Source: Sedimentisphaerales bacterium
GTDB taxonomy: Bacteria; Planctomycetota; Phycisphaerae; Sedimentisphaerales; SM23-30
Reading direction: 5' to 3'
Length of the DNA: 64,000 bases
Assembly (NCBI GenBank): GCA_963663965.2
Contig: CAXXFK010000032.1
Span: 96,001 to 160,000 of the forward strand
The notes under the pieces are model-generated. The model saw only the letters and a program-made list of their open reading frames with translations, ran no database searches and was not told the DNA's origin. This document shows, piece after piece, positions 1,644 through 63,814 of the stretch. The stretch's first letter is position 1. The number at the start of each line of letters is the position of its first letter. The position numbers and the translations under genes were made by a program.

Positions 1644-4577
1644 TTAAAAATTAGTTGTCTCGCGAACCAGATCATACAACGCCGTAAATGGCACCCGCAT
1701 CATAACCCGAAATCCCGTATACGGATATTTGCTGCCGGCAGATACCTCGTTTTTCAGAATGTTAATCATTTTCCCCCGGTCATCCGCATAGCTCCCTCCC
1801 GCTTGTATCGCCATAACACTAGCCGCAGAGCCATTCAGGTCACTACTTCCCGGGCTATCGCTTTCTACCCATTCGGCCACATTGCCCATCATATGAAAAA
1901 GCCCCCACGTATTGGCATAACGAAGTTCAGATGGATCGACCGGTTTCGGCCCAACCAGATCTTTCTGATTCGACCAGCAGTCACCCTGGACAACGATACC
2001 CGGCGCCTGGTTACATTGATAAGCATACTGCCATTGCCTCAGACTGGGTAAGCCGCACTCGCAACCATACCCGATCTGTTTCTCCAACCTGTGGCAGAAT
2101 TCCCGGGCTTCAAAGAATGTCATATTCACCACCGGGTACCTGTTATATGCGGACAGATTATCACCTGACAGCCAGGCCACTCCATCCCGGGGCATTATCC
2201 CCATAAGTAGCTCCCATTGTCTCCTGGTCACCTCAAAGCGGCTGATAAAAAACCATTCGCGCTCATCCGCGCTTCCGGTTCCTGTGGACCGGGCTATTTC
2301 CACCAGTTCCATATCCCCTATTTCGATAATGGAACGTAACCCATTATCCTCCCATATCCCCCGCTTGACCCTCAACGCGTCTGCATGACTGCCATCCAGT
2401 TTTAGCATCAAATGAGCCGCCTTAATTCGTTTTTGGGGATCGGTTTCACCCAGCAGAGGATGGATCTGCCTGATTAAACTTTCCTTGAGTTGATTAATTT
2501 TATCGACATAATAAGCTCCATCCTGGCTGAATTGTCCGACGAATTGTTGATAGTTGCCGATCAATTGGTTCAAACCATCCAGATCCTTCTGGTCTTTTAT
2601 CTGGCCTTCAACTTCTCCGATCCGTTGATTAAAATCGCTCATTCGCTGCTCATGATTCAAACGTTGCTCGGTTTGGGCAATAAGCTCCTGCAACGGCTCT
2701 CCTTCATAACGGGCCAGTCTGGGTATCGACTCTATGACCGCCGTATCCATTCCATCCAGTAACTGAATCGCCTGACGCAGCCGTACTTTCGCGCCCTCAC
2801 GATCATCATCCAGACAGGCGCGCGCCCGCTCATAGCCGGCATTCGTGATGGCTTCATCCGCCTCCAGCGCTTTCAATCCCGCCTCACAGCAGGCTCGCCG
2901 AAAATCCAGGTCTTTAATATACTGTATATGTTTTCCCAGCAGTGGCTCTGGTATTTCTTTGGTATATTTGGCGGCATGCACTTCCTTGACATCATCACAA
3001 ATTCTAATGAATGATTTGAGCGTATCAGACTCGCTGATATCATTTTTAGGCAGATTATCCAGTTCCTGCTTCCATAAGGCCGCGCTCTTCTTGAACATAC
3101 TGTCAGATAAAGTTGCGATCACACAGTTCAAATATTTATAGTTCGGATATTTGCCAAGAAATTCATAAACATTGTTTATCACTATCTCCAGTCGATCTAC
3201 TTTACCGCCATCGGTTGTAATGTTTTCCAGATTATTACTGATATCTTTAAATACACTATCCGCATGGATATTCTCTTCTATGACATTCAATAATGAAATG
3301 ACCTGAGGGCGCTTGGTATAATTTGGACATTGCTCCAGGATAAAATTCAAACTGGCTTTTGCCTGATCATAGGCATCCCGGTAATAATCTTCCCGCCCCT
3401 GACGATAAAGCCCGTCCGCACGCCATTCCTGATAAGAACGAGTCAACTCCGCCCGGTTAAAAAATAATCCCGCCAGCATAATCCCCAGGATAAACGTACC
3501 GATCGTCCGCAATACCTTATGCGAGGGTTTGGCAACCGGGGTAAAGTCATCCGAATCATGCGTATCCCAGCTGTCCGATGAGGTTTCGGACATCAATGGC
3601 TTAGGCTCCTCCACTGGCGCTTTTTTATTATCCGCCTCCTGAGCCGGCGGTTCCGGCGTGCTCTGCATGCGCTTATAAGCCTCTAACAGCAAATCCACCA
3701 GTTCCCGCGCCGAACCCGGACGCTCCAGCGGCTTTTTCGCCAGCGCGTAGCGCAGCGCCCCGTTGATCTCTTCATTGTAACCATCAATCGGATCCGGCTG
3801 TTTATTCTTGATTTGCTCGCGCAAATCGCCCCGGTAAAACGGCGGATGCCCCGCCAGACACTCATACATCAACGCCCCGAAGGAATAGATATCCATCAGC
3901 GAGGTCGGCTGCTCGCCCAGCAGTTGTTCCGGGCTCATATACGGCAGCGTCCCCGTCGCCTGCTCCTTGCCCGTTACCCGCGTATAGGTGTCTTTCAACT
4001 CCCGCGCGATCCCGAAGTCCAGAATCTTGATCTGATATCGATCTCCGTACACCATGACATTGGATGGCTTCAGGTCGCGATGCAGAACATGACAGCTATG
4101 GGCGTAATCCAGCCCGATGGCGATCTGGCGGCCCAGGTAGATCGTATCGCTCAACCCGAGTTTACCCCTGGTCTTCTTCGCCAGGATCTGTTCCAGGGTT
4201 CGTCCCGGAATATACTCCATCACGATAAAATACTGAAACCCATCGGTATGCATATCGTATAACCGCACAATATAAGGATGGGTCAGTTGCCGCGTGGTCT
4301 GGGCCTCCTGCTTCAAACTCTTGATCGCCCTGGGGTTACTGGCCAGCGTCGGCGGAATAAATTTGATCGCCACCTGCGCCCCTTCCAGCATATCATCCGT
4401 GGCCAGATAGACCATCCCCATTCCCCCTTCACCCAGCTTGCGCAAGATCCGGAACCGGTCTGCCAGCAGTTTGCAGGCATCACCACCCTCCGTCTTCACC
4501 GTGGGCAATCGGTCCAGCGTATGATAAACATCATCCAGATCCTTCTTTAACAGATTTTTATTCGGGAATTCTACCAT
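1644..4577 (-). CDS. Hanks-type Ser/Thr kinase with TM helix, TPR-like helical region and C-terminal FGE-sulfatase-like domain
   Basis: LGEGGMGMVY, VAIK, HRDLKPSN, DFG and YMSPEQ motifs; TM segment IGTFILGIMLAGLFF; FEVTRRQW, WGLFHMMGNVAEWV, GGSY and GFRV; start moved to ATG 4577 after the upstream stop. Confidence 0.92.
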   Translation of the reverse strand: MVEFPNKNLLKKDLDDVYHTLDRLPTVKTEGGDACKLLADRFRILRKLGEGGMGMVYLATDDMLEGAQVAIKFIPPTLASNPRAIKSLKQEAQTTRQLTHPYIVRLYDMHTDGFQYFIVMEYIPGRTLEQILAKKTRGKLGLSDTIYLGRQIAIGLDYAHSCHVLHRDLKPSNVMVYGDRYQIKILDFGIARELKDTYTRVTGKEQATGTLPYMSPEQLLGEQPTSLMDIYSFGALMYECLAGHPPFYRGDLREQIKNKQPDPIDGYNEEINGALRYALAKKPLERPGSARELVDLLLEAYKRMQSTPEPPAQEADNKKAPVEEPKPLMSETSSDSWDTHDSDDFTPVAKPSHKVLRTIGTFILGIMLAGLFFNRAELTRSYQEWRADGLYRQGREDYYRDAYDQAKASLNFILEQCPNYTKRPQVISLLNVIEENIHADSVFKDISNNLENITTDGGKVDRLEIVINNVYEFLGKYPNYKYLNCVIATLSDSMFKKSAALWKQELDNLPKNDISESDTLKSFIRICDDVKEVHAAKYTKEIPEPLLGKHIQYIKDLDFRRACCEAGLKALEADEAITNAGYERARACLDDDREGAKVRLRQAIQLLDGMDTAVIESIPRLARYEGEPLQELIAQTEQRLNHEQRMSDFNQRIGEVEGQIKDQKDLDGLNQLIGNYQQFVGQFSQDGAYYVDKINQLKESLIRQIHPLLGETDPQKRIKAAHLMLKLDGSHADALRVKRGIWEDNGLRSIIEIGDMELVEIARSTGTGSADEREWFFISRFEVTRRQWELLMGIMPRDGVAWLSGDNLSAYNRYPVVNMTFFEAREFCHRLEKQIGYGCECGLPSLRQWQYAYQCNQAPGIVVQGDCWSNQKDLVGPKPVDPSELRYANTWGLFHMMGNVAEWVESDSPGSSDLNGSAASVMAIQAGGSYADDRGKMINILKNEVSAGSKYPYTGFRVMMRVPFTALYDLVRETTNF

Positions 4578-4590
4578 GACACACCTGCTA

Positions 4591-5190
4591 TTATCCGTTG
4601 GTTTCCTTCTTAAGTTTCGTTTCGATTTCACGCAGCATCAAGTCAATATGATTCTCGGTCGCGCTGGCCTGACCTTCCGCCTCCCGCCCAATCAATTCAT
4701 CGATCTGTTCGATCCCCGGCAGACCATCATCATCCGGTTCATAATCCAGCGTACTGCCGCTGACCCGGTCCAGCACCATATTCATGGTCCGGTCCATCTG
4801 CCGGGCGTTGGCCATCGCCAGATTCAACTCTCCGATCGTCTTGGTCAGATCGATGTTCTTGAACACCGACGCGATCGATTTGGTCGCCGCCTGCAATCCC
4901 TTGGCAAACTCGCCATAACTCTCGATCCGCTCCTTCGTCTGCACCATCGCTTCAAACGTCAGCAGCGCGCTCTCCAGCCGCCGCCGCTCGGCCATTGTCT
5001 GCAATAGCAGCTTCGCCAGCTTCTGATAATTCTCCGGATCCCCGATCTGGCGTGCCCGCACTGCTTTTTCGCAGTAGCCCCGCTCATGCTTCTTCAACTC
5101 CTTGATACGGCGCCGGTGCAAATCCAGCACATTCTGGATCGCCAGATCCCGTTCCAACTGCTTCTGCTGCTTGCTCTTAAATAATCCCAT
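4591..5190 (-). CDS. Snf7/ESCRT-III family protein (Vps2/Vps24/CdvB-like)
   Basis: 199 aa, all helical; amphipathic start MGLFK; basic N-half and acidic C-half; pattern G-x8-AKxLxxT...S-x4-A-x6-TK...MD-x4-MxxD follows recalled CHMP2/Vps2; C-terminal MIM1-like helix IDLMLREIETKLKK; adjacent to a Vps4-like gene. Confidence 0.8.
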   Translation of the reverse strand: MGLFKSKQQKQLERDLAIQNVLDLHRRRIKELKKHERGYCEKAVRARQIGDPENYQKLAKLLLQTMAERRRLESALLTFEAMVQTKERIESYGEFAKGLQAATKSIASVFKNIDLTKTIGELNLAMANARQMDRTMNMVLDRVSGSTLDYEPDDDGLPGIEQIDELIGREAEGQASATENHIDLMLREIETKLKKETNG

Positions 5191-5242: not shown

Positions 5243-6406
5243 CTAAGACACCCCGTTCCCCCACCTCTCAAACCGTTCCAGATCCTCACCTCCCGTTCCC
5301 GGCCGGATCCGCTCCAGCGCCGCCTCCAGATCTGCCACCCGGATCGCTTCCACCTTCAGTTCATAACTCTCCAGCGCCACCCGGCCCGACTCCGCCACCC
5401 GCGCCAGATCCGGGTTCGCCCGCGAGATCATCCGCCGGATCAGTTCTTTCCCAATCTGCTCCAGCTCCCGGCCGCTATAACCCTCCGTCCGGGCAGCCCA
5501 CTCAGCCAGATCGCCCTCAACCTGATACCCCCGCCGGGTCAGCAGCAACTCCAGAATCGTCTCCCGCGCCGCTCCATCCGGCAGATTCACATACGATAGC
5601 TTGCCAAACCGCGACAGCACCGCCGAATCGATCAGCCACGGCTTATTCGTCGCCGCGATCACCAGCACCAGCCGGCCATCCGACTTGCTCTCGAAGCCAT
5701 CCATACTGGTCAGCAATTCCGCCAGCACCCGCCGTTCAGCGCCATCGGCCCGCCCATCCCGGTCCGGCACCAGCGACTCAAAATCATCCAGAAAGATCAC
5801 CGATGGATGCATCCGCGCCGCCAGTTCAAACACCGCGTTAATCAGCTTGCCCGACTCGCCAAAATACTTGCTCAGCAGATCGCTCACCTTACACGAAAAA
5901 AACGTCGCCTCCAGCCCTTTCGAAATCGCCGCCGCCACCAGCGTCTTGCCCGTTCCCGGCGGGCCGTACAGCAGCAGGTTGGCATGCCGCGGCAGCCCCA
6001 CCCCCTCCGGCCGCTTCGCCAGCGCCAGTGCGAACGTCTCCTTGATAAACTGCTTGATCTCATCCAGACCCGCGATATCTTCCCAGCCAACCTTCGCCTT
6101 GCGGATCAACTGCCGCGCGTTCTCAAAATAACCCGCCTCCTCCGGCCCCACCGCCGCTTCCACATCTCTATCCGCCCCATCCGCCTCAGTATCCTCAGCC
6201 GAGCCTCCCGCGCGCAACTGCTCCGCCAGCTTCTTCAGCTTCTCCGCGTCCGCCAGCCGCCTGGCCCGCACCGATTCGCTCACCGCGCTCCTGGCATACC
6301 GGGCCATCAACTCACCCGCCCGCGCATACCGCACCGCCGCCGCCTCACCCTGACCCGCCGCCTCCAGCGCACGCGCCTCCACCAACACCCCGTTCCAACT
6401 GCTCAC
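5243..6406 (-). CDS. Vps4/CdvC-like AAA+ ATPase with N-terminal MIT domain
   Basis: MIT-like N-terminus (ARALEAAGQGEAAAVRYARAGELM); VGWEDIAGL, LLYGPPGTGKT, SDLLSKYFGES, AATNKPW, TEGYSG; C-terminal EDLERFERW helix as in Vps4; single AAA domain, no TM. Confidence 0.88.
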   Translation of the reverse strand: MSSWNGVLVEARALEAAGQGEAAAVRYARAGELMARYARSAVSESVRARRLADAEKLKKLAEQLRAGGSAEDTEADGADRDVEAAVGPEEAGYFENARQLIRKAKVGWEDIAGLDEIKQFIKETFALALAKRPEGVGLPRHANLLLYGPPGTGKTLVAAAISKGLEATFFSCKVSDLLSKYFGESGKLINAVFELAARMHPSVIFLDDFESLVPDRDGRADGAERRVLAELLTSMDGFESKSDGRLVLVIAATNKPWLIDSAVLSRFGKLSYVNLPDGAARETILELLLTRRGYQVEGDLAEWAARTEGYSGRELEQIGKELIRRMISRANPDLARVAESGRVALESYELKVEAIRVADLEAALERIRPGTGGEDLERFERWGNGVS

Positions 6407-6511
6407 CGGTTACACCACTCAAATCTACCATAAAATTCTAATTTCCTTGTTCTAAAAGTCAGGCTTTTCCAAAGTACTATCCAAATTCCATCCATCTCCC
6501 ATCGCATTACT

Positions 6512-7149
6512 GAGGTCCAAAGGACCGCCAGTTCCTAGCCGGGGGCGTCAGCCCCCGGAAAACGAGCTCCCCCCACACAACAAGCCCCGGAGGGGCGACA
6601 GAATTAATCAAAAATATAACGCTTATCATATTCCACTCCATGTTTATCCAGCAACTGGATCAACTCCGTTTCATAACTCATCACCTCATGATGCGCCTGC
6701 TGGCCGTTGACATAATCGACAACCTTCTGCAAACCGGAATACGAAACCGTAAACGACGAATACCCTGTTTGCCAGGCAAAAAACGAACAGCCGCCATCAG
6801 TCTCTTTATACCATTTCGAGGAATTGGCTTTCACATCTCTGACAAAATCAGCCAGACACTCTGCCGGCTTCAGTTTCGCCACCAGATGAATATGGTCCGG
6901 CATACCATTGGCAGTAACCAAAACCTGACCTCGATTCCTGACAATCCCGCCAAGATAATCACACAAGCGCGGAATCGTTTCAATATTAATCAATCGCCTC
7001 CTCTCTTTGGTCGAAAAGACAATATGATAATATAACTGAGTAAAAGACACTAATAATATCCTTTCGCCCTTTCAGGGCTTTGTTTTATTCTACTATCCTG
7101 TCCCGGGGCCTCACGGCCCCGGCTAAAAACTCGCGGCCCGTCGGGCCTC
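6512..7149 (-). mobile_element. IS200/IS605-family (REP-associated type) element: tnpA flanked by ~90-bp imperfect inverted repeats built of hairpins
   Basis: Arms 6512..6601 and 7061..7149 are imperfect reverse complements, e.g. aagccccggaggggcgacag versus the reverse complement of ctttcgccctttcagggctt. Confidence 0.8.
6604..7050 (-). CDS. tnpA: Y1 (HUH) transposase, IS200/IS605 family
   Basis: YHIVFSTKER, HUH motif DHIH, LADFVRDVKANSS, FAWQTGY, catalytic YVNGQ. Confidence 0.92.
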   Translation of the reverse strand: MSFTQLYYHIVFSTKERRRLINIETIPRLCDYLGGIVRNRGQVLVTANGMPDHIHLVAKLKPAECLADFVRDVKANSSKWYKETDGGCSFFAWQTGYSSFTVSYSGLQKVVDYVNGQQAHHEVMSYETELIQLLDKHGVEYDKRYIFD

Positions 7150-7230
7150 TCCAATGGACGATGTTATTTTCATGTCAATTGACAGATCACATCTTCATTT
7201 CAACAATCATTTTTTTCTTAAAATCACAAT

Positions 7231-7344
7231 TCCCAAAGAACTATCCAAATTCCATCCACCCCCCATCGCACCACCGAAGCCCGAAGGTCGAAGATCCGCC
7301 TCAGGAGGAACCGCCAGTTCCTAGCCGGGGGCGTCAGGCGTCAG
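7231..7344. repeat. Variant REP-like palindromic repeat (copy 2)
   Basis: ccaaagaactatccaaattccatcc...gaagcccgaaggtcgaagatccgcctcaggaggaaccgccagttcctagccgggggcgtcaggcgtcaga, nearly identical to 7830..7944. Confidence 0.85.
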
Positions 7345-7418
7345 AGTCTTTATTGTATTTTTCAATCACACATTTCCAAAGAACTATCCAAACTCCATTC
7401 ATCCCCCATCGCACTCCT

Positions 7419-7632
7419 GAGGTCCAAAGGACCGCCAGTTCCTAGCCGGGGGCGTCAGCCCCCGGAAAAAGACTCCCCCCACACAACAAGCCCCGGAGGG
7501 GCGACAGAATATTTATTCATTTCTTTCAATCTCAAACAAAACGCTTTCGCCCTTTCAGGGCTTTGTTTTATTCTACTATCCTGGTCCGGAGCCTCACGGC
7601 CCCGGCTAAAAACTCACGGCCCTTCGGGCCTC
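7419..7632. mobile_element. Non-autonomous (empty) copy of the tnpA element, REPIN/MITE-like
   Basis: Both arms of 6512..7149 are present almost unchanged, separated by 36 nt (7508..7543) instead of tnpA. Confidence 0.85.
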
Positions 7633-7829
7633 TCTAATGGCTAGGTTATTTTTAGCGCTATTGACGCTTATCATGCACATTAAACACAAATCAAGAACAC
7701 CTCTTATAACTATCCATTCCATCCTTCTTCTAAAATAACAAATCGCCAAAACACTTCAAATAACCAAATCTCCTCATCATCATTTCATATACAGAAATGA
7801 TGAAACTTCTTTTTCTTATAATCTCATAT

Positions 7830-7944
7830 TTCCAAAGAACTATCCAAATTCCATCCATCCCCCATCGCACACCTGAAGCCCGAAGGTCGAAGATCCGCCT
7901 CAGGAGGAACCGCCAGTTCCTAGCCGGGGGCGTCAGGCGTCAGA
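7830..7944. repeat. Variant REP-like palindromic repeat (copy 4)
   Basis: Near-identical to 7231..7344; followed by hairpin ggcccgaagggcc. Confidence 0.85.
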
Positions 7945-8095
7945 ATAAAAGCACGCTCCCATCTCAAGGCCCGAAGGGCCGAAAGATTTTCCCTTTCGCC
8001 CTCCACCCAAATATCCCTATTATCAAAAAAACTTCTATTCAATTTTTCATACTCCAGGGGACCTACCCCCTAGCCCCCCAAAAAGAGTAACCAAA

Positions 8096-10297
8096 TCAGT
8101 CCAGACCTCCAACGCACAACACCCGAAAACCTAAATCGCGGCAGACAGGGATGATCCAGTAGCGATTGGCGGTGCGGCAGCTGATTTCACCATTGTTCCA
8201 ACTGCCGCCGCGCAGAACACGGCGGGCGCCACTGGTCGGCCCAATTGGATCACTAGCTGGACTTTTACTGTAATAATTCTCATCATACCAGTCCAGACAC
8301 CATTCCCATACATTGCCATGCATATCATATAATCCCCAGCCATTCGACTGCTTCTGGCCCACTGGATGAGTCTTACCACCACTATTGTCATCATACCAGG
8401 CATAATTACCCAACTGGCTCACGCTATCACCAAAACTATAGTCTGTTTTCGTTCCAGCCCTACAGGCATATTCCCATTGCGCTTCCGTTGGCAAAGTATA
8501 AGTCTTTCCTTCCAACTCACCTAACTTCTTACAAAATGCCATGGCATCTTCCCAACTCACACTCTCCACCGGATTGTTATCACCTTTAAAACTACTGGGA
8601 TTCGTCCCCATCACTTTTTCATATTGGGCCTGGGTCACTTCATACTGTCCCAGCCAGAAGCCCTTCGTAATCTTCACCTGATGAACCGGCTTCACATTAC
8701 CCTTTCCATTATGACTCCCCATCATAAACTCACCCGGCCCGATCCACACCAGTTTCATGCCGATACGATTGGTCATCAAATCACCCGGTTCGGGCCCATA
8801 GTATCCAGCAATTTTCTTATATAATGACAACGCCTCTAAATGTCCCGGTTCCAATTTTAAAAGTTCATCCAGCGCCTTAAGGGCCTCTCTTCCATCAGTC
8901 TTATTATCCTTAGCGCGCGCCAAAATTAACAGCCTGTCAATCTTTTGACGAACAATAATTTTTTGCGGCCGCTGGATTCTTTTCGTTTTCTCTTCTATCG
9001 CGTCCAGCATGCGGCTCAATCGCCTGGCCGGCTGACTGCCATTGGCCACGCCGGCAATGGCGGCTGATATCTCCCGGTCTTTATCATCCAGATAGTCAGC
9101 CGCTTCTTGCCGGGCCTTCACCATTGCCTCGGCAAATTGATAGTCTTCCAGTCCAAGCTCTTCATCCAGGTACATCTCCCATAACGCTTTCAGATCAATA
9201 AAGACACCAGACTGACCGGTTCCAGATGAACTTGATTGCGCCTCGATCTGAAAATCCCGCCAGTATTGACGCGCCTTTTCGAGATCTTCACCACTCAGGC
9301 CGACCGCGATCGCCAGCGGCATCCGTCGCGCGTTTTCTGACGCGTCCAGTCGCGGTTGCGGGATATGCTCCCAGGCCACGGAGGGCTTGTTGCGGACTAT
9401 CCAGCGGCGCACGCCATCAGCCACATATTGATTCAAGGTGCCCACTGTGACAAAGCCGCCTTCATCCGCCTTCGCCTGTCCGCGTAAACCCTGCAATAAA
9501 AAATGGGTAAATACCCCATAACCGCTGTCGGGGTCTTCATAACTGAGTTGACCAATGCCGCAACTGGTCAGGGTAATCTGGCCCCGCCCGGCGGCAAAGG
9601 CTTTCATAAAGGCTTCACTCATCGCCGGCCCGGCGCCACCCGACTTGCTGCGGCCCACCCGTTCCCGGCAGGCGTCCAGAATAACCATCTTCTTGCCCGC
9701 CCTGGATTCACTGATGGTATCGGTCAATATCTTGGAACGCAGGGCCGTATCGCTCAGATAGGCGCGCAGACCATCGGACGGCATGATATAAATGCTGTTA
9801 TCATCTTCAAAGCCATGTGAACTGACTGATACGATTACCAGGTCTTCACCGGATACCGGCATGCGGGTGGCAATAATCAGTCCATTCAGGATATCGCTTT
9901 TAGCCGCGTTTTTCAATTCCGCGCCGGCAGCTTTCAATCGCCGCAACTGCTCTACGGCAACCGGCAGGGTTGGCTGACCGGACAGACACAAAATACAGTT
10001 ATTGGCCGGAATCAGTTTCAGCTCTTCTACGAAAAGATACGCCTGACTGACCGCGTCATTCACCGCGCAATTTAATGAGGCCAGACTCGAATCTTTGGTA
10101 AATTCATTAACTCCGACAAATAGTCCGGCGCTATTACTCCTGGCCAGTGGAGTAACAGCCTGGAGTTCATTTTTTGGTAATTCCACTACCATGAGTGCTT
10201 TGGATCGATCTGACTCTGTATCGGCATTCACAGCGAATAGAAGCCAATGATTCAGTATCAACAATGCTGCTGCAAACCATAATTTCTGAGATCGCAT
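8096..10297 (-). CDS. Secreted caspase-like (peptidase C14) protein with C-terminal FGE-sulfatase-like domain
   Basis: Signal peptide MRSQKLWFAAALLIL; SSHG and LDACR catalytic His/Cys; YEVTQAQY, LPTEAQWEYACRAG, WGLYDMHGNVWEWC, RGGSW, GFRV. Confidence 0.9.
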   Translation of the reverse strand: MRSQKLWFAAALLILNHWLLFAVNADTESDRSKALMVVELPKNELQAVTPLARSNSAGLFVGVNEFTKDSSLASLNCAVNDAVSQAYLFVEELKLIPANNCILCLSGQPTLPVAVEQLRRLKAAGAELKNAAKSDILNGLIIATRMPVSGEDLVIVSVSSHGFEDDNSIYIMPSDGLRAYLSDTALRSKILTDTISESRAGKKMVILDACRERVGRSKSGGAGPAMSEAFMKAFAAGRGQITLTSCGIGQLSYEDPDSGYGVFTHFLLQGLRGQAKADEGGFVTVGTLNQYVADGVRRWIVRNKPSVAWEHIPQPRLDASENARRMPLAIAVGLSGEDLEKARQYWRDFQIEAQSSSSGTGQSGVFIDLKALWEMYLDEELGLEDYQFAEAMVKARQEAADYLDDKDREISAAIAGVANGSQPARRLSRMLDAIEEKTKRIQRPQKIIVRQKIDRLLILARAKDNKTDGREALKALDELLKLEPGHLEALSLYKKIAGYYGPEPGDLMTNRIGMKLVWIGPGEFMMGSHNGKGNVKPVHQVKITKGFWLGQYEVTQAQYEKVMGTNPSSFKGDNNPVESVSWEDAMAFCKKLGELEGKTYTLPTEAQWEYACRAGTKTDYSFGDSVSQLGNYAWYDDNSGGKTHPVGQKQSNGWGLYDMHGNVWEWCLDWYDENYYSKSPASDPIGPTSGARRVLRGGSWNNGEISCRTANRYWIIPVCRDLGFRVLCVGGLD

Positions 10298-10351
10298 ATC
10301 ACTACTCCATATCCATCCCATCAGTCTGGGACACCTCGATAACGTGACAGC

Positions 10352-19635: not shown

Positions 19636-21546
19636 TCATTCCATCTCCCTCTGACAATCCACCACCAGCACCACCCGAAATCCAAGATTGTCACTGCTGC
19701 CTTTTGCCGGCACCCCCCGCCGGGCCGCCGACCGGCACAAAAATGGCATATCGCGCCAGGAACCGCCTCGCACCACCCTGGTCGTCCCCTGCGTATTGAG
19801 CGGATCGACAGCGGTCGCGTCGCTGTAATTCCCAAAGGAATCTTCACACCATTCCGCCACATTTCCGTGCATATCGTACAGCTGCCAGCGGTTCGGTTTC
19901 AACGCCCCCACCAGACCCGGCGATTTGACTTTAAGGGGATAGCTGCACCGGCAGATCTGATGCACGCCGCTCATATTGTCATTCCCGTTATTATAGGCCG
20001 TATATCTCACCTTTTCATTGGGCTTCTCTATGGTGGCCCGGCACGCATATTCCCACTCTGCCTCGGTGGGCAATCGATAAGTCCGACCTTCCACCAGCGA
20101 CAGCTTGCTGCAAAAGGTTTTCGCCTGATCCCAGGTAATATCTACGATCGGAAAATTGGGGTCCAATTGTTTATAGGTGCTGGGGTTCGTCTCCATCAAA
20201 CGTTCCCACTGCCCCTGGGTTACCTCACAGGCGCCGATGAAAAACGATTTCGTCAGGATAACTTTATGACGGGGCCGCTCACTCTCATCATGCCCTTCCT
20301 CATTGCTGTCACTGCCTTGTAGAAAGGTCCCCGGCTGAACGTGAACCAGCTTCATCCCGATCGAATTCACATAAGTCGGCATCGAACAGATATCAAACAT
20401 AAGCGCTCGCAATTCCGCTGTCTTTTGAATCGCCCGCTCTCTTTGCTCGTTATATGGCGTTAATCGGTCCGGTTCCGCCGGCAAGGATTTCATTTTCGCG
20501 TTTAACTCACCGATCGCTTCTTCCTGAACGGCCAGAGCCAGTTCCAAATCGTTAACCGGCTGCCAGTCTGGCCGGCGGTCCATCTCAACTTCGATCTCGT
20601 CCAGACGCTGCGCTATCGCACCCAGATGACTTAAGACCGTATCCCACGGATCCCGGTTGGCAAGAATCATCTGACCGCTCGTATACCCCCGCAAGATCGG
20701 GGTCTGTTCTTTGCCATTTGCCAGACACCAATTGGCGACCCCTTCGACCACATAGCCAAACAATTCATGGACTGTCACCTTGTGATCCTTATTGCCGTCC
20801 ACCTCCATATCCGCCATTCCCGCCAACCCCTTGATCAACTCCGCCGTAAACACTCCCAGCTTTTCGGCATCATTCTCGTAGGATAACTGGCTGGCATCAC
20901 AACTGCTCATGGTCAGAAAACCGGCCTTATCGAAATTACGGCTGATATTATCCGCCGCGCTGGAACTGGCATCGGCATCCTTGCCCCCGCTGTGACAGGC
21001 ATCCAGGATTAACAGCCGCTGCTTGGCCGCACTGGTCTCCAGTAACTCTTTGACCAGCGACATGGCGATCATCTTAGTCGTGTCTTTGCCATCCGCCGCA
21101 GTATCCAGGGGTAACAGATAACCGGTATTGGTCCCATGCCCGGAATAATAGACAATCAGCAAATCATCCTTTTTCACCTTCCCGGTTATGGCAGTCAGTC
21201 GGTCCCGGATATTTGATGTTATCGGACTATTTACCCCCTCCGAATCGTCCGTCATCACAAAAACATGATCCGATTTAAATCCGACGGTTTTCAAACACTC
21301 AGCGAAATGGGTGGCATCGTTGCAGGCATATTGTAACTCAGGCACTTTCCAATTCTTATAATTCAATCCAATCACAATCGCCCAGCGATCCCCGATCGCA
21401 CCGCCATTATTATCCGGGGGCACAATCTCAAACTGCTTACCGGCTGGCGACACTCCGGACTCTTGCGCCCACACAACCAGACCTGACATCAGCACAAACA
21501 AACTGATCCACACCTTAACGGTTCTCATTTTAATCGATCCAGCCAC
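19636..21546 (-). CDS. Secreted caspase-like (peptidase C14) protein with C-terminal FGE-sulfatase-like domain
   Basis: Signal peptide; RWAIVIG, YSGHG, LDACHSG; LPTEAEWEYACRA, LYDMHGNVAEWC, RGGSW, LGFRVV. Confidence 0.92.
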   Translation of the reverse strand: MAGSIKMRTVKVWISLFVLMSGLVVWAQESGVSPAGKQFEIVPPDNNGGAIGDRWAIVIGLNYKNWKVPELQYACNDATHFAECLKTVGFKSDHVFVMTDDSEGVNSPITSNIRDRLTAITGKVKKDDLLIVYYSGHGTNTGYLLPLDTAADGKDTTKMIAMSLVKELLETSAAKQRLLILDACHSGGKDADASSSAADNISRNFDKAGFLTMSSCDASQLSYENDAEKLGVFTAELIKGLAGMADMEVDGNKDHKVTVHELFGYVVEGVANWCLANGKEQTPILRGYTSGQMILANRDPWDTVLSHLGAIAQRLDEIEVEMDRRPDWQPVNDLELALAVQEEAIGELNAKMKSLPAEPDRLTPYNEQRERAIQKTAELRALMFDICSMPTYVNSIGMKLVHVQPGTFLQGSDSNEEGHDESERPRHKVILTKSFFIGACEVTQGQWERLMETNPSTYKQLDPNFPIVDITWDQAKTFCSKLSLVEGRTYRLPTEAEWEYACRATIEKPNEKVRYTAYNNGNDNMSGVHQICRCSYPLKVKSPGLVGALKPNRWQLYDMHGNVAEWCEDSFGNYSDATAVDPLNTQGTTRVVRGGSWRDMPFLCRSAARRGVPAKGSSDNLGFRVVLVVDCQREME

Positions 21547-57442: not shown

Positions 57443-58855
57443 TTAACAATCGTAATACAAATGAAATTCAAATGGATGCGGCCGAAGCGCCATTGGGCTC
57501 AATTCTTCATCCCGTTTCCAGGAAATCCATGACTGAATCAATTCTTTACTAAAAACCCCGCCTCGTGTCAGGAATGCGTGATCGGCTTCCAATGCGTCGA
57601 TGGATTCTGCCAGCGAACCGGGAACTTTGGGAATATTCTCCAGATCGGCGCCCTTCAGTTCATAGATATTCTTATCCAAGGCCTTGGGCAATGGCAGATC
57701 CGACTCAATCCCATCGATCATGGCCATCAGCATCGCGGGCCATAACAGGTAACCATTGGCAGTTGGGTCCGGACAACGGAATTCGACCCGCTTGGCCTTG
57801 GGGCTATTACTGTACATGGGGATGCGGCAGGCCGCCGAGCGGTTCCGGGCGCTAAGCACCAGATTGACTGGCGCCTCGAATCCCGGCACCAGACGCCGAT
57901 AACTGTTGGTCGTGGGCGCGCCGAAAGCCAGGATGGCCGATGCGTGCTTGAGAATACCGGCGATCCCCTTCAACGCCGTTTCACTCAATCCGGCATAACC
58001 CTCGCCCGCCATCAGGGTGTTGCCCCCCTTCCAGATGGAAATATGGCTGTGCATGCCCGAACCGTTATCATCAAAAACCGGCTTGGGCATGAAGGTAACC
58101 GATTTGCCGTTGCGGCGCGCAACATTTTTAATCACATATTTGTACCACATATACTGATCGCACATCTTGGTCATTTCCGCGAATTCCATATCGATCTCGC
58201 TCTGACCGGCGGTCGCGACCTCATGATGATGCGCCTCAACCCGGATTCCCAGTTTCATCATCTCATAGACCATCTCACCACGCAGATCGTGGTAGGTATC
58301 GGTCGGACTGACCGGGAAATACCCGCCCTTGTAACTGGGTTTATAACCAAGGTTCGGCTCCTCAAAGCGCGCCGTATTCCAGGAACCCTCGACGGAATCG
58401 ATTTGATAATAGCCGGTGTGCTGATTCTGTTCATAGCGGACTTCATCAAATATAAAAAATTCGGGTTCCGGACCGATAAAACAGGAATCGGCTATTCCGG
58501 ATTCTTTTAGAAACTGTGCGGCTTTCCTGGCGGTAGTTCGTGGACACTTGCCATAAGGTTCGCGTGTTTCAGGGTCGACAATATCTGCCAGCACGCTGAC
58601 TGTCGGTTCGGCAAAGAACGGATCGATCACGGCAGTATTCGGATCGCATACCGCCAGCATGTCCGATTGATGAATCTCCTGCCAGCCGCGAATCGACGAT
58701 CCATCAAAACCCAGACCGTCACTGAAAATACTTTCATCCAGTGTTTGGACTGGATAGGAACAGTGCTGCCAGGTTCCCAGTAAATCGCAGAATTTCAGGT
58801 CCACCATTTTTGCGCCATTTTTGTCACAATATTCGAAAAATTCTTTGGGGGTCAT
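57443..58855 (-). CDS. glnA: Glutamine synthetase type I
   Basis: GFDGSSIRG, HHHEVATAGQ, FMPKP-DNGSGMH, NSYRRLVPGFEAP, RVEFRCPD; adenylylation-site-like KNIYEL. Confidence 0.97.
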   Translation of the reverse strand: MTPKEFFEYCDKNGAKMVDLKFCDLLGTWQHCSYPVQTLDESIFSDGLGFDGSSIRGWQEIHQSDMLAVCDPNTAVIDPFFAEPTVSVLADIVDPETREPYGKCPRTTARKAAQFLKESGIADSCFIGPEPEFFIFDEVRYEQNQHTGYYQIDSVEGSWNTARFEEPNLGYKPSYKGGYFPVSPTDTYHDLRGEMVYEMMKLGIRVEAHHHEVATAGQSEIDMEFAEMTKMCDQYMWYKYVIKNVARRNGKSVTFMPKPVFDDNGSGMHSHISIWKGGNTLMAGEGYAGLSETALKGIAGILKHASAILAFGAPTTNSYRRLVPGFEAPVNLVLSARNRSAACRIPMYSNSPKAKRVEFRCPDPTANGYLLWPAMLMAMIDGIESDLPLPKALDKNIYELKGADLENIPKVPGSLAESIDALEADHAFLTRGGVFSKELIQSWISWKRDEELSPMALRPHPFEFHLYYDC

Positions 58856-59673: not shown

Positions 59674-60999
59674 TTAATTCAAGTTCAGTAAACCATAGCC
59701 ATGTTCACCATGCAAACTATGGTCCATACCGGCCTTTTCATCATATTCGTTTAATCGGAATCCAACCGTTTTTTGAACAATAACACAGATCACCAGAGTT
59801 CCGATGGCCGCCAGAACGATAGTGACTGAGATCCCTTTTAACTGCACCAGAAACTGATCCAGTGCCGACCAGGCTCCTGTTGAACTGAGTTCCGCCGCCT
59901 CGTTCATCCAGCTTTTTCGCACAAAAAACGATAATAATAAGACTCCCATTCCACTGCCCACCCCATGAATTCCAAAACAGTCCAGACTGTCATCATACCC
60001 AAACCGCTCCTTTAATTTCAATGCGTAATAACACAATAATGCGGAACACGCCCCCATAATCAGGGCGCCGGTGGGCTGCACAACGCCGGCGGCGGGTGTG
60101 ATGACCACCAGCCCTGCCAGTATTCCGGACACAAATCCCAATGAAGTCGCCTTTCGAAACTTGATCGCTTCAATCAGCATCCAGGTTAACGCGCCGCTCG
60201 CGGCGGACACCTGGGTCATGGTCAGGGCCCTGGCAGTATCTAATCCGCTATGAATGGTTGATCCTGCATTGAAACCAAACCAGCCGGCCCAGAGCAATCC
60301 GGCTCCCATCATGGTCATGACCAGATTATTGGGATGCATGGCTGTTTTTGGATATCCGCGTCGCGCTCCCAGGAACAACGCGACGACCAGGGCGCTGACC
60401 CCCGCCGAAACATGGATCACCAGGCCGCCCGCCAGATCGATCACGCCATTGGCCCCGCTGTTATACAACCAGCCGTCAGATCCCCAGACCCAATGACACA
60501 ACGGACAATAGACCAGAATAAACCAGAGGCAGATAAATAAACTGTAGCCGCGGAAATAAACCCGCTCTGCCAAGGCGCCCGCGATCAAGGCCGGGGTAAT
60601 AATCGCGAATTTACCCTGAAACATAGCCAGAACATATTCCGGAACCCCGTTAACTATGGAATCGTCAATCCCCCTGAGACAGAAATAATTCCAGTCCCAG
60701 CCGATAAATCCACCCAGAATATTCTTTCCAAATGCCATCGAATACCCGCAGATCATCCACAAAACGCCAATCAATGCCATCGCGACAAAGCTATGCATCA
60801 TCGTTCCCAAAACATTTTTCGTCCTCACCAGACCGCCATAAAACATGGCAAGTCCCGGCACCATCAGCAATACAAAAGCCGTGGATGTCAACATCCAGGC
60901 TGTCGTTCCCGTATCGACATCAGACCCATCGTTCGCGTAGACACCGCTGGTCAATATCAATAATAACACCAGGGCCTGGAATAAATGCAATTTCTTCAT
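59674..60999 (-). CDS. amtB: Ammonium transporter
   Basis: GLAMFYGGLVR, FAIITPALI, DLAGG-IH, WFGFNAGS, DDSLD-FGIHG. Confidence 0.95.
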   Translation of the reverse strand: MKKLHLFQALVLLLILTSGVYANDGSDVDTGTTAWMLTSTAFVLLMVPGLAMFYGGLVRTKNVLGTMMHSFVAMALIGVLWMICGYSMAFGKNILGGFIGWDWNYFCLRGIDDSIVNGVPEYVLAMFQGKFAIITPALIAGALAERVYFRGYSLFICLWFILVYCPLCHWVWGSDGWLYNSGANGVIDLAGGLVIHVSAGVSALVVALFLGARRGYPKTAMHPNNLVMTMMGAGLLWAGWFGFNAGSTIHSGLDTARALTMTQVSAASGALTWMLIEAIKFRKATSLGFVSGILAGLVVITPAAGVVQPTGALIMGACSALLCYYALKLKERFGYDDSLDCFGIHGVGSGMGVLLLSFFVRKSWMNEAAELSSTGAWSALDQFLVQLKGISVTIVLAAIGTLVICVIVQKTVGFRLNEYDEKAGMDHSLHGEHGYGLLNLN

Positions 61000-61181
61000 G
61001 CAATCAATCCCTTTAATTCCATAAGTCCAGACCGGTTGCGCAAACCGTACGATATGCAGTACGCGTATCGACACTGATACTGTCATCGCACGGCGATTGA
61101 CTCGCCGGCTGTATTCCGTTTATAGGTTCTAGGCCGGCTTACATACCGGCTGCCTGTTGGTTCAATAATGGCCGATCAGGA

Positions 61182-62080: not shown

Positions 62081-63364
62081 TTAATTCAAATTCAATAATC
62101 CATAGCCATGCTCACCATGCAAACTATGATCCATACCGGCTTTTTCCTGGGATTCCGCCATTCGGAAACCCACCGTCTTTTCTAATAGGATACAAAGTAT
62201 CAGGGAGACTACTCCGGCGTACGCGATACTGATTAAAACCCCTTCCGTCTGATACCATAATTGCTGGGCAAATCCGTGTACCTCAACGGATTCGGGTCTG
62301 AGGAAAAATGTCAGCCCGATTGCCCCGATAATTCCGGCAATCCCATGAATACCAAACACATCCAGAGTATCGTCGTATCCGAGTCGTGATTTGATCAGAA
62401 CGGCGCCATAACAGAAAAACGCGGCAATGGTCCCCAACGCGATCGCGCCGATGGGCGGCACATCGCCGGCCGCCGGTGTAATGGCAACCAGGCCCGCAAG
62501 GATACCGGAAACCAATCCAAGACTCGTGGCTTTTTTATGATGAAAGGCCTCAATCAACATCCATACCAGTGCCCCGGTAGCGGCGGCGATCTGGGTCACG
62601 GTCAGGGCCTGGGCGGTTTTCAATCCGCTGGATACCGAACTGCCGGCGTTAAATCCGAACCAGCCCACCCAGAGCAGACCGGCGCCCATAAGTGTCATGA
62701 CCAGATTATTGGGATGCATGGCCGTTTTCGGATACCCCCTGCGAGCGCCCAGATACAAGGCGATAACCAGACCCGCGACACCCGCTGAAATATGAATAAC
62801 GGTTCCTCCGGCAAAATCAATGGCTTTACCCGTTAAAAAACCGCCGCCCCACACCCAGTGCGCCAGCGGATTATAAACCAGTAAACTCCATAATGCGATA
62901 AAGATACAATAGGCTTTGAACCGGACACGTTCCGCAAACGCCCCGGCGATCAAAGCCGGAGTAATAATCGCAAACTTACCCTGGAACATGGCGAATACCA
63001 GGGATGGGATTCCCAGGTTTTCATCAATTTTTGAATCCAGCCCTTTCAGGAATAGCCAGTCACTGTTCCAGCCGCACCAGCCATGGCTATCACCAAAACA
63101 CATGGCATAACCACAGACGGCCCATACCACACCAATGATGGCCATCGCCGCGAAACTGTGCATCATCGTCCCGATAACGTTCTTGGTGCGAACCAGTCCA
63201 CCGTAAAACATACCCAATCCCGGCACCATCAATAAGACCAGTGCCGTCGAGGTTAGCATCCAGGCGGTCGTACCGCTGTCACAGGCCACCTCATCGGCGG
63301 CAAATAAAGTTGACGTACATAACAAAAATAATAAACCAGACAAAACCAGCTGTTTTTTCTGCAT
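62081..63364 (-). CDS. amtB: Ammonium transporter
   Basis: GLGMFYGGLVR, DFAGG-IH, WFGFNAGS, DDTLDVFGIHG. Confidence 0.95.
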   Translation of the reverse strand: MQKKQLVLSGLLFLLCTSTLFAADEVACDSGTTAWMLTSTALVLLMVPGLGMFYGGLVRTKNVIGTMMHSFAAMAIIGVVWAVCGYAMCFGDSHGWCGWNSDWLFLKGLDSKIDENLGIPSLVFAMFQGKFAIITPALIAGAFAERVRFKAYCIFIALWSLLVYNPLAHWVWGGGFLTGKAIDFAGGTVIHISAGVAGLVIALYLGARRGYPKTAMHPNNLVMTLMGAGLLWVGWFGFNAGSSVSSGLKTAQALTVTQIAAATGALVWMLIEAFHHKKATSLGLVSGILAGLVAITPAAGDVPPIGAIALGTIAAFFCYGAVLIKSRLGYDDTLDVFGIHGIAGIIGAIGLTFFLRPESVEVHGFAQQLWYQTEGVLISIAYAGVVSLILCILLEKTVGFRMAESQEKAGMDHSLHGEHGYGLLNLN

Positions 63365-63452
63365 ACCTGTGGTTCCTTTTAATTTTAAAGAGTATTCCGT
63401 TTGATAACTGATGCCTTCAACATCAAGAGATATTCTGTGCAGAAATACTTTT

Positions 63453-63468
63453 TGCAAATGATATGCCA
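63453..63468 (-). promoter_or_regulatory. Sigma54 -24/-12 promoter for amtB-glnK
   Basis: TGGCATATCATTTGCA, GG-N10-GC. Confidence 0.78.
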
Positions 63469-63814
63469 AAAATGGAAATGAATGTCAAATACTGGATAAG
63501 CAGCTCATTCTCATAATAGCCAAATAAACCATAAGTAACCAATAATTAAATAGTTACAAATATTCAGTGCGAGCCAGAAACAAAGAAACAATTTTTTCAT
63601 AAACGAAAAAACCCTTTACCCCACCGGCCAGCAACAACATATTTGTCTTTATTATCCTTCGAATTACACAAATGTAAGTCATTCTCATAAAATCAAAAAA
63701 AACCAGGTCCATAATGGATACCTGGCGTTTTGAATTGGCGGTTTTACCAATTCGTTTTATCTATACTCTCTCTCAATTTCAAAAAAAATAATGGTGCCAA
63801 ATTTATTTGATTAA

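Follow-up and report, generated by a model that had tools for sequence, protein, structure and literature searches.

The window analysed here is a stretch of 64,000 nucleotides from the genome of a Sedimentisphaerales bacterium (contig CAXXFK010000032.1), and the gene under study, located at 5243..6406 on its minus strand, encodes an ATPase of 387 amino acids (P0001) that is read from a GTG start. Based on the open reading frame (ORF) and its translation, on Pfam and on phylogeny we describe it as a Vps4-like MIT-AAA ATPase. We consider it likely that P0001 belongs to a bacterial branch of the Vps4 (ESCRT-IV) AAA ATPases and that it serves as motor in a bacterial ESCRT-III/Vps4-like module that is conserved. 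The family assignment is made because of the MIT fold at the N-terminus, the acidic linker, the single AAA domain, the C-terminal helix, the neighboring Snf7-type gene, the co-occurrence of both genes and the placement of the protein in the tree. By analogy to Vps4 and CdvC the ATPase would assemble as a hexameric ring, its MIT domains would bind the amphipathic helix that is conserved at the C-terminus of the Snf7-like protein, and pore loop 1 (K180-Y181-F182) would draw subunits through the ring, resulting in ATP-driven disassembly or remodelling of membrane-bound ESCRT-III-like polymers. An earlier sequence-only reading of the gene had likewise described a MIT-AAA ATPase with a Vps4-type terminal helix and had explained it by cross-domain transfer from a euryarchaeal ESCRT locus. 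The architecture proposed there was recovered in our analysis; the proposed origin was not.

Domain architecture and sequence motifs of the ATPase

Scanning P0001 against Pfam resulted in a single match to the AAA domain (PF00004, residues 144-273, E=2.4e-37). All features of the gene given here lie on the minus strand. From the sequence and from alignments we assigned the Walker A motif GPPGTGKT (residues 148-155; 5942..5965) and the Walker B motif VIFLDDFES (residues 203-211; 5774..5800), which carries DD in the subclade of P0001 and DE in most of the other bacterial tree rows. Pore loop 1 is SKYFGES (residues 179-185; 5852..5872; sequence and clade comparison). The TNxPW motif noted previously is present as TNKPW at residues 253-257, and the second region of homology (SRH), DSAVLSRFGK at residues 260-269 (5600..5629; sequence and clade alignment), is of the short form without 'PG' and includes AVLSRF at residues 262-267. 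R266 is the only arginine in this region, with Ser265 occupying the first arginine-finger position, and S265, R266 and F267 are invariant in all 15 aligned relatives.

SKYFGES and AVLSRF had been singled out as variants in the sequence-only reading, and neither is peculiar to P0001. SKYFGES occurs in 19 of the 23 bacterial tree rows, tyrosine being located where archaeal Vps4 carries tryptophan, while the Asgard and TACK rows mostly show SKWLGES or near variants. In the SRH the bacterial clade shows LS--RF, Asgard sequences RR--RF and TACK sequences xR--RF; R(R)PGRF is found in Halobacteriota, in second bacterial paralogues, and in CDC48, PAN and FtsH. Since SKYFGES and the residues S265, R266 and F267 recur in the relatives, we regard these motif variants as clade-wide signatures and not as chance deviations.

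The first 66 residues (6209..6406) were assigned to a three-helix domain of MIT fold using AlphaFold2 (AF2), Foldseek and a profile search against the PDB. The underlying alignment (A3) comprises the N-terminal 100 residues from each of 11 family members. AF2 on A3 predicts helices at residues 3-16, 20-39 and 44-65, with block-mean local confidence values (pLDDT) of 93-96 over residues 11-60. When this model was compared to the PDB with Foldseek, the first 16 rows listed were all MIT domains (SKD1/VPS4, MITD1, katanin p60, NRBF2 and yeast Vps4), 13 of them with a root-mean-square deviation of 1.2-2.0 Å over 64-71 columns and TMt values of 0.27-0.80. The MIT domain of archaeal CdvC (2w2u) follows lower down the list. 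The A3 profile gave 11 matches in the PDB, of which 8 are MIT chains of VPS4A, VPS4B or SKD1 (best E=0.0021) spanning all three helices. Taken together, the MIT fold of the N-terminus is supported, as the earlier reading had it, and membership in the MIT family by sequence is weak. The domain is followed by a linker that is predicted to be disordered (residues 67-100; 6107..6208): in the AF2 model pLDDT drops below 50 from residue 69 and amounts to 43-46 in the blocks from residue 71 on. The acidic stretch itself, which had also been noticed before, spans about residues 66-100 of the translation.

At the other end of the protein, residues 290-387 (5243..5539) comprise a lid domain and a C-terminal helix, identified by matches to AAA_lid_3 and Vps4_C, both weak, and by katanin matches in the PDB. 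The last 98 residues match katanin chains only (MEI-1, KATNAL1; E=8e-5). The terminal helix is probably of katanin/Vps4 type. Vps4_C (PF09336) is precomputed on 4 of the 120 relatives of P0001 that were listed.

The Snf7-like neighbor and the phylogeny of the ATPase

Located 52 bp downstream of the ATPase gene, at 4591..5190 on the same strand, is a gene for a protein of 199 amino acids (P0122) that profile searches and AF2 identify as a Snf7/CHMP3-type ESCRT-III protein. We used an alignment of 18 members covering this Snf7-like family (A2). Fifteen of the 18 match Snf7 (PF03357) at E<=0.01, the best at 5.8e-7, and none matches PspA_IM30 (PF04012). Compared to the PDB, the A2 profile matches CHMP3 (E=2.1e-6), CHMP2A and Snf7; CdvB and CHMP1B are weak matches (E 0.08-0.8). 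Positions 1-170 align with CHMP3, beginning at the MGLF motif of the N-terminus and extending as far as the acidic EID..I segment. This result depended on the family profile, as a PDB search with the single P0122 sequence returned only a designed repeat protein. AF2 models P0122 at a pLDDT of 80 with helices at 7-49, 52-109, 116-145 and 160-198, and the predicted structure corresponds to what is expected for an ESCRT-III-type long hairpin plus following helices. The C-terminus forms a conserved amphipathic helix in which only about 4 of 6 positions fit the MIM1 consensus. A complex prediction between MIT residues 1-78 (A3) and the P0122 tail, residues 150-199 (A2), reached a score of 0.02, which speaks neither for nor against an interaction.

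P0122 has 57 close homologues at 63-71% identity, annotated as hypothetical in their source, with PF03357 precomputed on 16 of them; the organism names among them are Planctomycetes, Planctomycetota and Sedimentisphaerales. Searching 1.84 billion entries with the A2 profile gave 625 cluster representatives at E<=0.001 (clusters at 50% identity) and 358 at 1e-10. In some longer relatives the Snf7-like domain is N-terminal and the protein ends in an FtsK/SpoIIIE motor (four proteins) or in a RuvB-like AAA+ domain (two proteins, one with a NERD nuclease); representatives of these fusions are P0394, P0428, P0447, P0457, P0432 and P0453. As sequences they hint at a link of ESCRT-III-like polymers to DNA handling.

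The two genes are closely linked. Among 301 sampled genomes of the phylum Planctomycetota, 45 contain an ATPase match at E<=1e-60 and 59 a match to the Snf7-like profile. All 45 genomes with the ATPase are also Snf7-positive, and in 42 of these both genes are located on one contig within about 6 kb. A homologue of P0122 adjoins the ATPase on the same strand in all 20 loci listed, including that of the window, and a Snf7-like gene is also the direct neighbor of the ATPase in a locus of Chloroflexota. In 14 genomes a Snf7-like gene was found with no ATPase match at the strict threshold, at least two of these matches being located at contig ends. Among Chloroflexota the Snf7-like gene is present in 2 of 201 genomes, including the genome on which the search was centred. 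Further relatives came from a metagenome scan (2 loci) and from a pattern-based contig scan (A1), whose 78 loci were mostly CDC48 or PAN because GPPGTGK is too general a pattern; the useful ones are L001, L002, L003, L024, L042 and L057. Two of them are solo members of the bacterial ATPase clade, L003 from a Methanophagales metagenome-assembled genome (MAG), at a contig edge, and L002 from a Rhodospirillaceae MAG. Neither has a Snf7-like gene nearby, and the A2 profile found none in either genome. The neighbors of L003 are MazF, TldD and TrmI, and this archaeal copy may have come from bacteria by transfer or may be the product of faulty binning.

For phylogenetic analysis the region from the AAA domain to the C-terminus was taken from 99 candidate rows. 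Before the tree was built 24 rows were dropped, comprising four second-AAA fragments, the PAN-type L043 and redundant CDC48 D1/D2 domains. The maximum-likelihood tree (IQ-TREE, LG+C20+F+G4 PMSF) contains 75 rows and 286 columns. All MIT/single-AAA proteins form a superclade (100/92) apart from CDC48 D1, CDC48 D2, PAN and FtsH. Within it a group supported at 99/96 comprises Asgard Vps4 (97/97), TACK CdvC (100/99) and a clade of 24 rows (100/100) on a stem of 0.9 substitutions per site. The latter consists of P0001, 22 other bacterial rows and, at its base, the Methanophagales fragment L003. The short SRH common to the bacterial, Asgard and TACK sequences is an indel that agrees with this tree. 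P0001 itself belongs to a subclade of five rows (100/100) that includes two named Sedimentisphaerales/Phycisphaerae proteins, and this subclade is nested with rows of Chloroflexota type (13 rows, 97/97) and not with the eight Planctomycetota rows that come from other families.

The sister group of the 99/96 group (100/96) contains six single-AAA proteins of Halobacteriota, the second AAA paralogues of L001, L024 and L042, and the TPR-AAA protein L099. One of seven scanned neighbors of the Halobacteriota loci matches Snf7 (4.8e-4). Nesting within euryarchaeal Vps4, which had been suggested as a check of the proposed transfer, is thus not what the tree gives, as the sampled Halobacteriota rows fall in the sister clade. 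Forcing the bacterial clade and Halobacteriota Vps4 together costs 31.1 log-likelihood units and is rejected by the approximately unbiased (AU) test (p=0.0021; the grouping stems from a prior hypothesis, but the rows were chosen with the tree already known). Of the kinship claimed earlier, the Vps4-family architecture and a relation to archaeal proteins remain, the archaeal kin being TACK and Asgard; the grouping with the sampled euryarchaeal Vps4 is lost. The sequence-only reading had set against its own proposal the case that the closest homologues form a broad bacterial AAA clade unrelated to archaeal Vps4. They do form a broad bacterial clade, but one that is related to Vps4 of TACK and Asgard archaea. 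In line with this, the best 120 of 1929 homologues of P0001 carry four organism names, all of them bacterial (Sedimentisphaerales, Phycisphaerae, Planctomycetes and Chloroflexota).

L099:1033-3666 (contig C18) is encoded in the same genome as P0001. It is a paralogue of 454 amino acids that carries TPR repeats instead of a MIT domain and is followed by a TPR protein of 416 amino acids; in the tree it groups with Halobacteriota Vps4 on a long branch (98/95). It may be of the type described in the accessible part of PMC11237479.

Strength of the assignment, origin and gene neighborhood

Several observations weigh against the assignment of P0001 and P0122 to an ESCRT-III/Vps4-like module. The terminal helix scores 19.4 bits against Pfam Vps4_C, under the cut-off of 21.3. 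Pfam MIT does not match P0001 and matches 2 of 11 relatives; the MIT rows in Foldseek have E values of 0.1-0.5, and none of the 371 matches reaches 0.001. NCBIfam models give partial scores for CDC48 (165 bits), CdvC (159 bits) and PAN (159 bits) that are all far under their cut-offs. In the case of the CdvC equivalog model NF041006, which aligns to residues 11-325, the 159 bits (158.3 in the genome-wide search) are to be compared with a cut-off of 650. Judged by these sequence scores P0001 is not a CdvC equivalog, and we place it in the wider Vps4 family as a branch found in bacteria. In a PDB sequence search VAT/CDC48 chains score highest, and the best chain with a single AAA domain is spastin (173.6 bits) and not Vps4. 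P0122 alone reaches 19 bits against PF03357 (E=0.0012), under the cut-off of 27.3, and its top Foldseek rows (CdvB2, CHMP2A/3, Asgard ESCRT-IIIB and CHMP1B) have weak E values of 0.09-0.25. The tree was sampled from archaeal and bacterial rows without eukaryotic (Vps4, katanin, spastin), Thermococci, Methanococci or Thermoplasmata sequences, and the branching order of its bacterial, TACK and Asgard clades is a trichotomy. Finally, the serine at the first finger position and the DD in Walker B could mean that ATPase activity is altered.

The start of the gene belongs to the same group of observations. A peptide with the family-typical N-terminus, MVDLSGVTGEQLER, is encoded at 6390..6431 on the minus strand, as seen from the translation, in a different frame from the main ORF. 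It shares 64-71% identity with the N-terminus of the homologues in L157 and L156, and V-D-L-S-G-V-L hardly varies at the very start of the proteins of the ATPase family (MxVDLSG...). One surplus G in the run of four at 6388-6391 puts this conserved N-terminus and the main ORF in different frames. The extra G may be an assembly error or a real change; assembled contigs of three public sequencing runs provide no coverage of 5981-6439, which includes this position. The protein read from the GTG start retains nearly all of helix 1.

Regarding the history of the gene in this genome, its GC content is 64.5% (0.776 at third codon positions) versus 48.6% for the genome, and only 2 of 2479 ORFs of at least 1 kb are as GC-rich. 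It was found in one of 251 genomes of the class, namely this genome, and in none of the 250 class-mates. The genome itself is bacterial, its EF-Tu scoring above the bacterial cut-off, and for ribosomal protein L1 all nine organism-named matches are Sedimentisphaerales, Phycisphaerae or Phycisphaerales. Because of the atypical GC content, the rarity across the class, the adjacent IS200-like element (see below) and the position in the tree, it seems that this genome obtained the gene recently and from other bacteria. The module would accordingly be pictured as accessory, horizontally gained from other bacteria and later split by the IS200-like insertion.

This recent step has to be distinguished from the origin of the bacterial clade as a whole. 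That the entire clade goes back to one ancient cross-domain transfer of Vps4 together with ESCRT-III, in either direction, and then spread among bacteria is a view to which we give even weight for and against. It concerns origin and is compatible with the functional reading favoured here. The bacterial clade is monophyletic and lies inside a group with TACK and Asgard Vps4, the counts given above for Planctomycetota and Chloroflexota show a patchy distribution of the pair among bacteria, and the accessible part of PMC11237479 infers transfers of VPS4-like ATPases from archaea to bacteria. On the other hand, the tree leaves the bacterial, TACK and Asgard clades as a trichotomy and does not give a direction, and with 625 clusters the Snf7-like family is not a small one.

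A more far-reaching idea, which we put forward only tentatively and with more doubt than belief, is that Planctomycetota and scattered other bacteria own a genuine ESCRT-III/Vps4 membrane machine as old as the split of TACK and Asgard Vps4. It would comprise a filament protein resembling CHMP3, a motor of Vps4 type with MIT domain and a single arginine in the SRH, control by kinases and P0123 and P0124 as additional partners, with the fusions of Snf7-like domains to FtsK and RuvB indicating chromosome clearance at a closing membrane neck. Planctomycetota are not known to have FtsZ and possess elaborate membranes. In the present genome, which is 94.6% complete, we detected no FtsZ (TIGR00065, E<=1e-5). 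If such a machine exists, the Snf7 and Vps4 pairing is not an archaeal-eukaryotic invention.

The genes surrounding the pair were analysed for further members of the module. Downstream of the Snf7-like gene an ORF of 995 amino acids (1644..4631, minus strand; true start probably later) encodes a fusion of a Ser/Thr kinase (Pkinase E=4.8e-48) with an FGE-sulfatase-like domain (FGE-sulfatase E=1.6e-12). Upstream of the ATPase follow an IS200-like/REP-associated tyrosine transposase (6604..7050, minus strand; Y1_Tnp E=1.1e-22, NF033573 above cut-off), which is located between the ATPase and a gene for a caspase-domain protein of 741 amino acids fused to an FGE-sulfatase-like domain (8096..10321, minus strand; Peptidase_C14 E=3e-10, FGE-sulfatase E=1.6e-49), and then the genes of P0123 and P0124. 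P0123 (10352..10981, minus strand) is a helical protein with an acidic tail. In relatives this conserved partner is encoded immediately upstream of the ATPase. It is 75% identical to L157:8247-8870, and homologues also occur in Chloroflexota L001 and in L086/L089/L090. P0124 (11040..11801, minus strand), likewise a conserved partner, is 44% identical to L157:7421-8224 and homologous to the C-terminal part of L001:59-1294, which bears a helix-turn-helix; it has no family match in Pfam or PADLOC. P0123 was considered as a second ESCRT-III protein, which the searches did not bear out: hhalign against A2 gave a probability of 2%, PDB and Pfam contained nothing relevant, and the only Snf7 lead was an ESM-Atlas row at rank 27, from a cluster with Snf7 on 16% of its members.

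The closest comparison is provided by L157, a metagenome contig with an ATPase 60% identical to P0001. Its genes are arranged on one strand in the order reverse transcriptase, second AAA, 175-aa ORF, caspase-WD40, P0124-like, P0123-like, ATPase, kinase with zinc ribbons, kinase-FGE, Snf7-like gene (67% identical) and caspase-FGE, the last being a full-length homologue of the window's caspase-FGE protein at 33% identity. Kinases homologous to that of the window adjoin the ATPase there. The order in the window (P0124, P0123, caspase-FGE, IS200-like element with repeats, ATPase, Snf7-like, kinase-FGE) corresponds to the module set of L157 in rearranged form. In Chloroflexota L001, P0123-like and P0124-like genes flank the ATPase/Snf7 pair. 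In family f58, 9 of 20 loci contain an ORF of about 264-281 amino acids between the pair, one of which was scanned and is a Kdo/WaaP-family kinase, and in some other loci a second AAA gene is located downstream. For the subclade of P0001 the module would thus also include P0123, P0124, Hanks-type kinases and the caspase-like protein, FGE-sulfatase-like domains being fused to some of the kinases and to the caspase-like protein. Kinases, caspase-like protein and extra partners suggest a phosphorylation-regulated stress, repair or conflict response and not a housekeeping machine.

Another reading of the same genes takes the module as part of an anti-phage or other conflict system. Sensing and effector functions would then fall to the AAA ATPase, the kinases and the caspase-like protease, and the Snf7-like protein would be a membrane-acting effector or a protector. 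The patchy accessory distribution, the atypical GC content and the adjacent insertion sequence would fit such a system, as would the conservation of caspase-FGE and kinase-FGE in the subclade and the reverse transcriptase, second AAA and caspase-WD40 genes upstream in L157, and PADLOC IetA models match the ATPase at 4.3e-37. These IetA/TRIP13 matches, like those to PD-T4-6/mad6, are however restricted to the generic AAA and kinase cores. No PADLOC model matches P0122, P0123, P0124 or caspase-FGE, and the pairs of families f58, f26 and f87 show no caspases in their 1.5-kb flanks. We judge this reading to be unlikely.

Upstream of the module in L157, the segment L157:1657-7215 comprises the reverse transcriptase (best PADLOC matches RT and DRT UG17), the second AAA gene, which is of the Vps4 superclade, the 175-aa ORF and caspase-WD40; it is possibly a separate defence-like cassette. 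In the window a second caspase-FGE-sulfatase fusion of 636 amino acids is located at 19636-21546 on the minus strand, about 9 kb from the first. The transposase is surrounded by a field of REP-like repeats (6459..7990, no strand assigned), made up of repeat families and inverted pairs. It includes four matches to the Acido-Lenti-1 motif (RF01687) at 6513-6558(-), 7103-7148(+), 7420-7465(-) and 7586-7631(+), scoring 42-47 bits where the gathering score is 37. They occur as inverted pairs within repeat units of about 100 nucleotides flanking the transposase, and the motif may be a REP-like hairpin of this transposase family and not a free-standing small RNA. Further away, tandem ammonium-transporter genes (59674-61086 and 62081-63469, minus strand) near a glutamine synthetase gene (57443-58855) are an ordinary nitrogen-assimilation context.

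Two other explanations have very little probability. P0001 might be an ordinary bacterial AAA ATPase of CDC48-like, FtsH-like or 'katanin-like' kind with a helical N-terminus by chance and no ESCRT function. The similar NCBIfam scores of CDC48, PAN and CdvC, the VAT/CDC48 chains heading the PDB sequence matches and the name 'katanin p60' among JGI relatives point in this direction, but the tree separates P0001 from CDC48 D1/D2, PAN and FtsH, the SRH is of the short Vps4/TACK/Asgard type, the N-terminus has the MIT fold, and a Snf7-family neighbor co-occurs in every one of the 45 genomes. Least probable of all is that this bacterium received the gene recently and directly from the ESCRT locus of a euryarchaeon (Thermococci type), in line with the transfer proposed in the sequence-only reading: euryarchaeal 'Main'-clade ESCRT loci often contain Ser/Thr kinases and Thermococcales have Vps4 according to the accessible part of PMC10936438, a kinase follows the pair here as well, and L003 at the base of the bacterial clade carries SKYYGES and IMSRF, but against this stand the exclusively bacterial names among the best homologues, the 23 bacterial rows of the clade with its long stem, the classic RRPGRF of the sampled euryarchaeal Vps4 together with the rejected joint grouping, and the missing ESCRT-III gene near L003 and in its genome by the A2 profile.

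Comparison with known systems

The pairing of a Snf7-type ESCRT-III protein with Vps4 is currently ascribed to archaea and eukaryotes only. In their accessible parts PMC10936438 states that ESCRT homologues are 'not in bacteria' and the 2025 review PMC7619361 that a Vps4-like ATPase 'appears absent in bacteria', and PMC8382908 and PMC6952346 do not describe the pair in Planctomycetota. In our literature search we came across no description of a bacterial pair of Vps4 and Snf7, be it in Planctomycetota or in Chloroflexota; most subscription journals lie outside its coverage, so prior publication is possible. A strictly linked bacterial pair would change the reconstruction of ESCRT origins. Modules of two to four bacterial genes would furthermore be simple systems for in-vitro work, and in Planctomycetota they would be a candidate means of cutting membranes without FtsZ, of forming vesicles or of repairing membranes. 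A conserved bacterial Vps4/Snf7 module with extra partners is more interesting than the question of its donor.

With the bacterial PspA/Vipp1 and PspF system the module shares an ESCRT-III-superfamily polymer next to an AAA+ gene, PspA and Vipp1 having a role in membrane stress. PspF is a sigma-54 activator and not a relative of Vps4. The partner found here is of Snf7/CHMP3 type, its family not matching PF04012 as given above, and PspA was not found in the 94.6%-complete genome (PF04012, E<=1e-3). Compared to the eukaryotic meiotic-clade AAA proteins (Vps4, katanin p60, spastin), P0001 likewise has a MIT-type N-terminus, a single AAA domain and a C-terminal helix. It differs in that no beta-domain is evident, although no formal test was made, and in having one arginine in the SRH instead of two or three.

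The euryarchaeal 'Main' ESCRT consists, according to the accessible part of PMC10936438, of Vps4, ESCRT-III, arCOG09748 and arCOG08177, often with a Ser/Thr kinase and a phosphatase, while Vps4 of Thermococcales is solo. Common to this system and the module described here are the Vps4 and ESCRT-III core, the protein kinases and extra proteins without a family assignment. The six sampled Halobacteriota proteins, which may belong to the 'Main' clade of that paper, differ from P0001 by their RRPGRF and their place in the sister clade, monophyly with the bacterial clade being rejected (p=0.0021). It is the second AAA paralogues of L001, L024 and L042 and the TPR-AAA protein L099 that do join the euryarchaeal clade (100/96).

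The closest resemblance is to CdvC/Vps4 and CdvB/ESCRT-III of TACK and Asgard archaea, with which P0001 shares the MIT fold, the single AAA domain, probably the C-terminal helix, the short SRH, an adjoining Snf7-family gene and the common 99/96 clade. In contrast to these systems the bacterial proteins form a separate clade on a stem of 0.9, with tyrosine instead of tryptophan in the pore loop, serine at the first finger position and, in the subclade of P0001, DD in Walker B, and with a score far below the CdvC equivalog cut-off. No CdvA or ESCRT-I/II genes were seen, and P0123, P0124, the kinases and caspase-FGE are additional. Within bacteria, MIT-containing VPS4-like ATPases, with an inferred archaeal origin and Planctomycetes included, are described in the accessible part of PMC11237479 (e.g. 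Opitutus ACB74714.1), in which snf7 is displaced by a TPR-6TM gene and some Snf7/PspA-AAA+ associations are reported. In comparison to these VPS4-like ATPases, the module described here has kept its Snf7-type gene, strictly linked to that of the ATPase.

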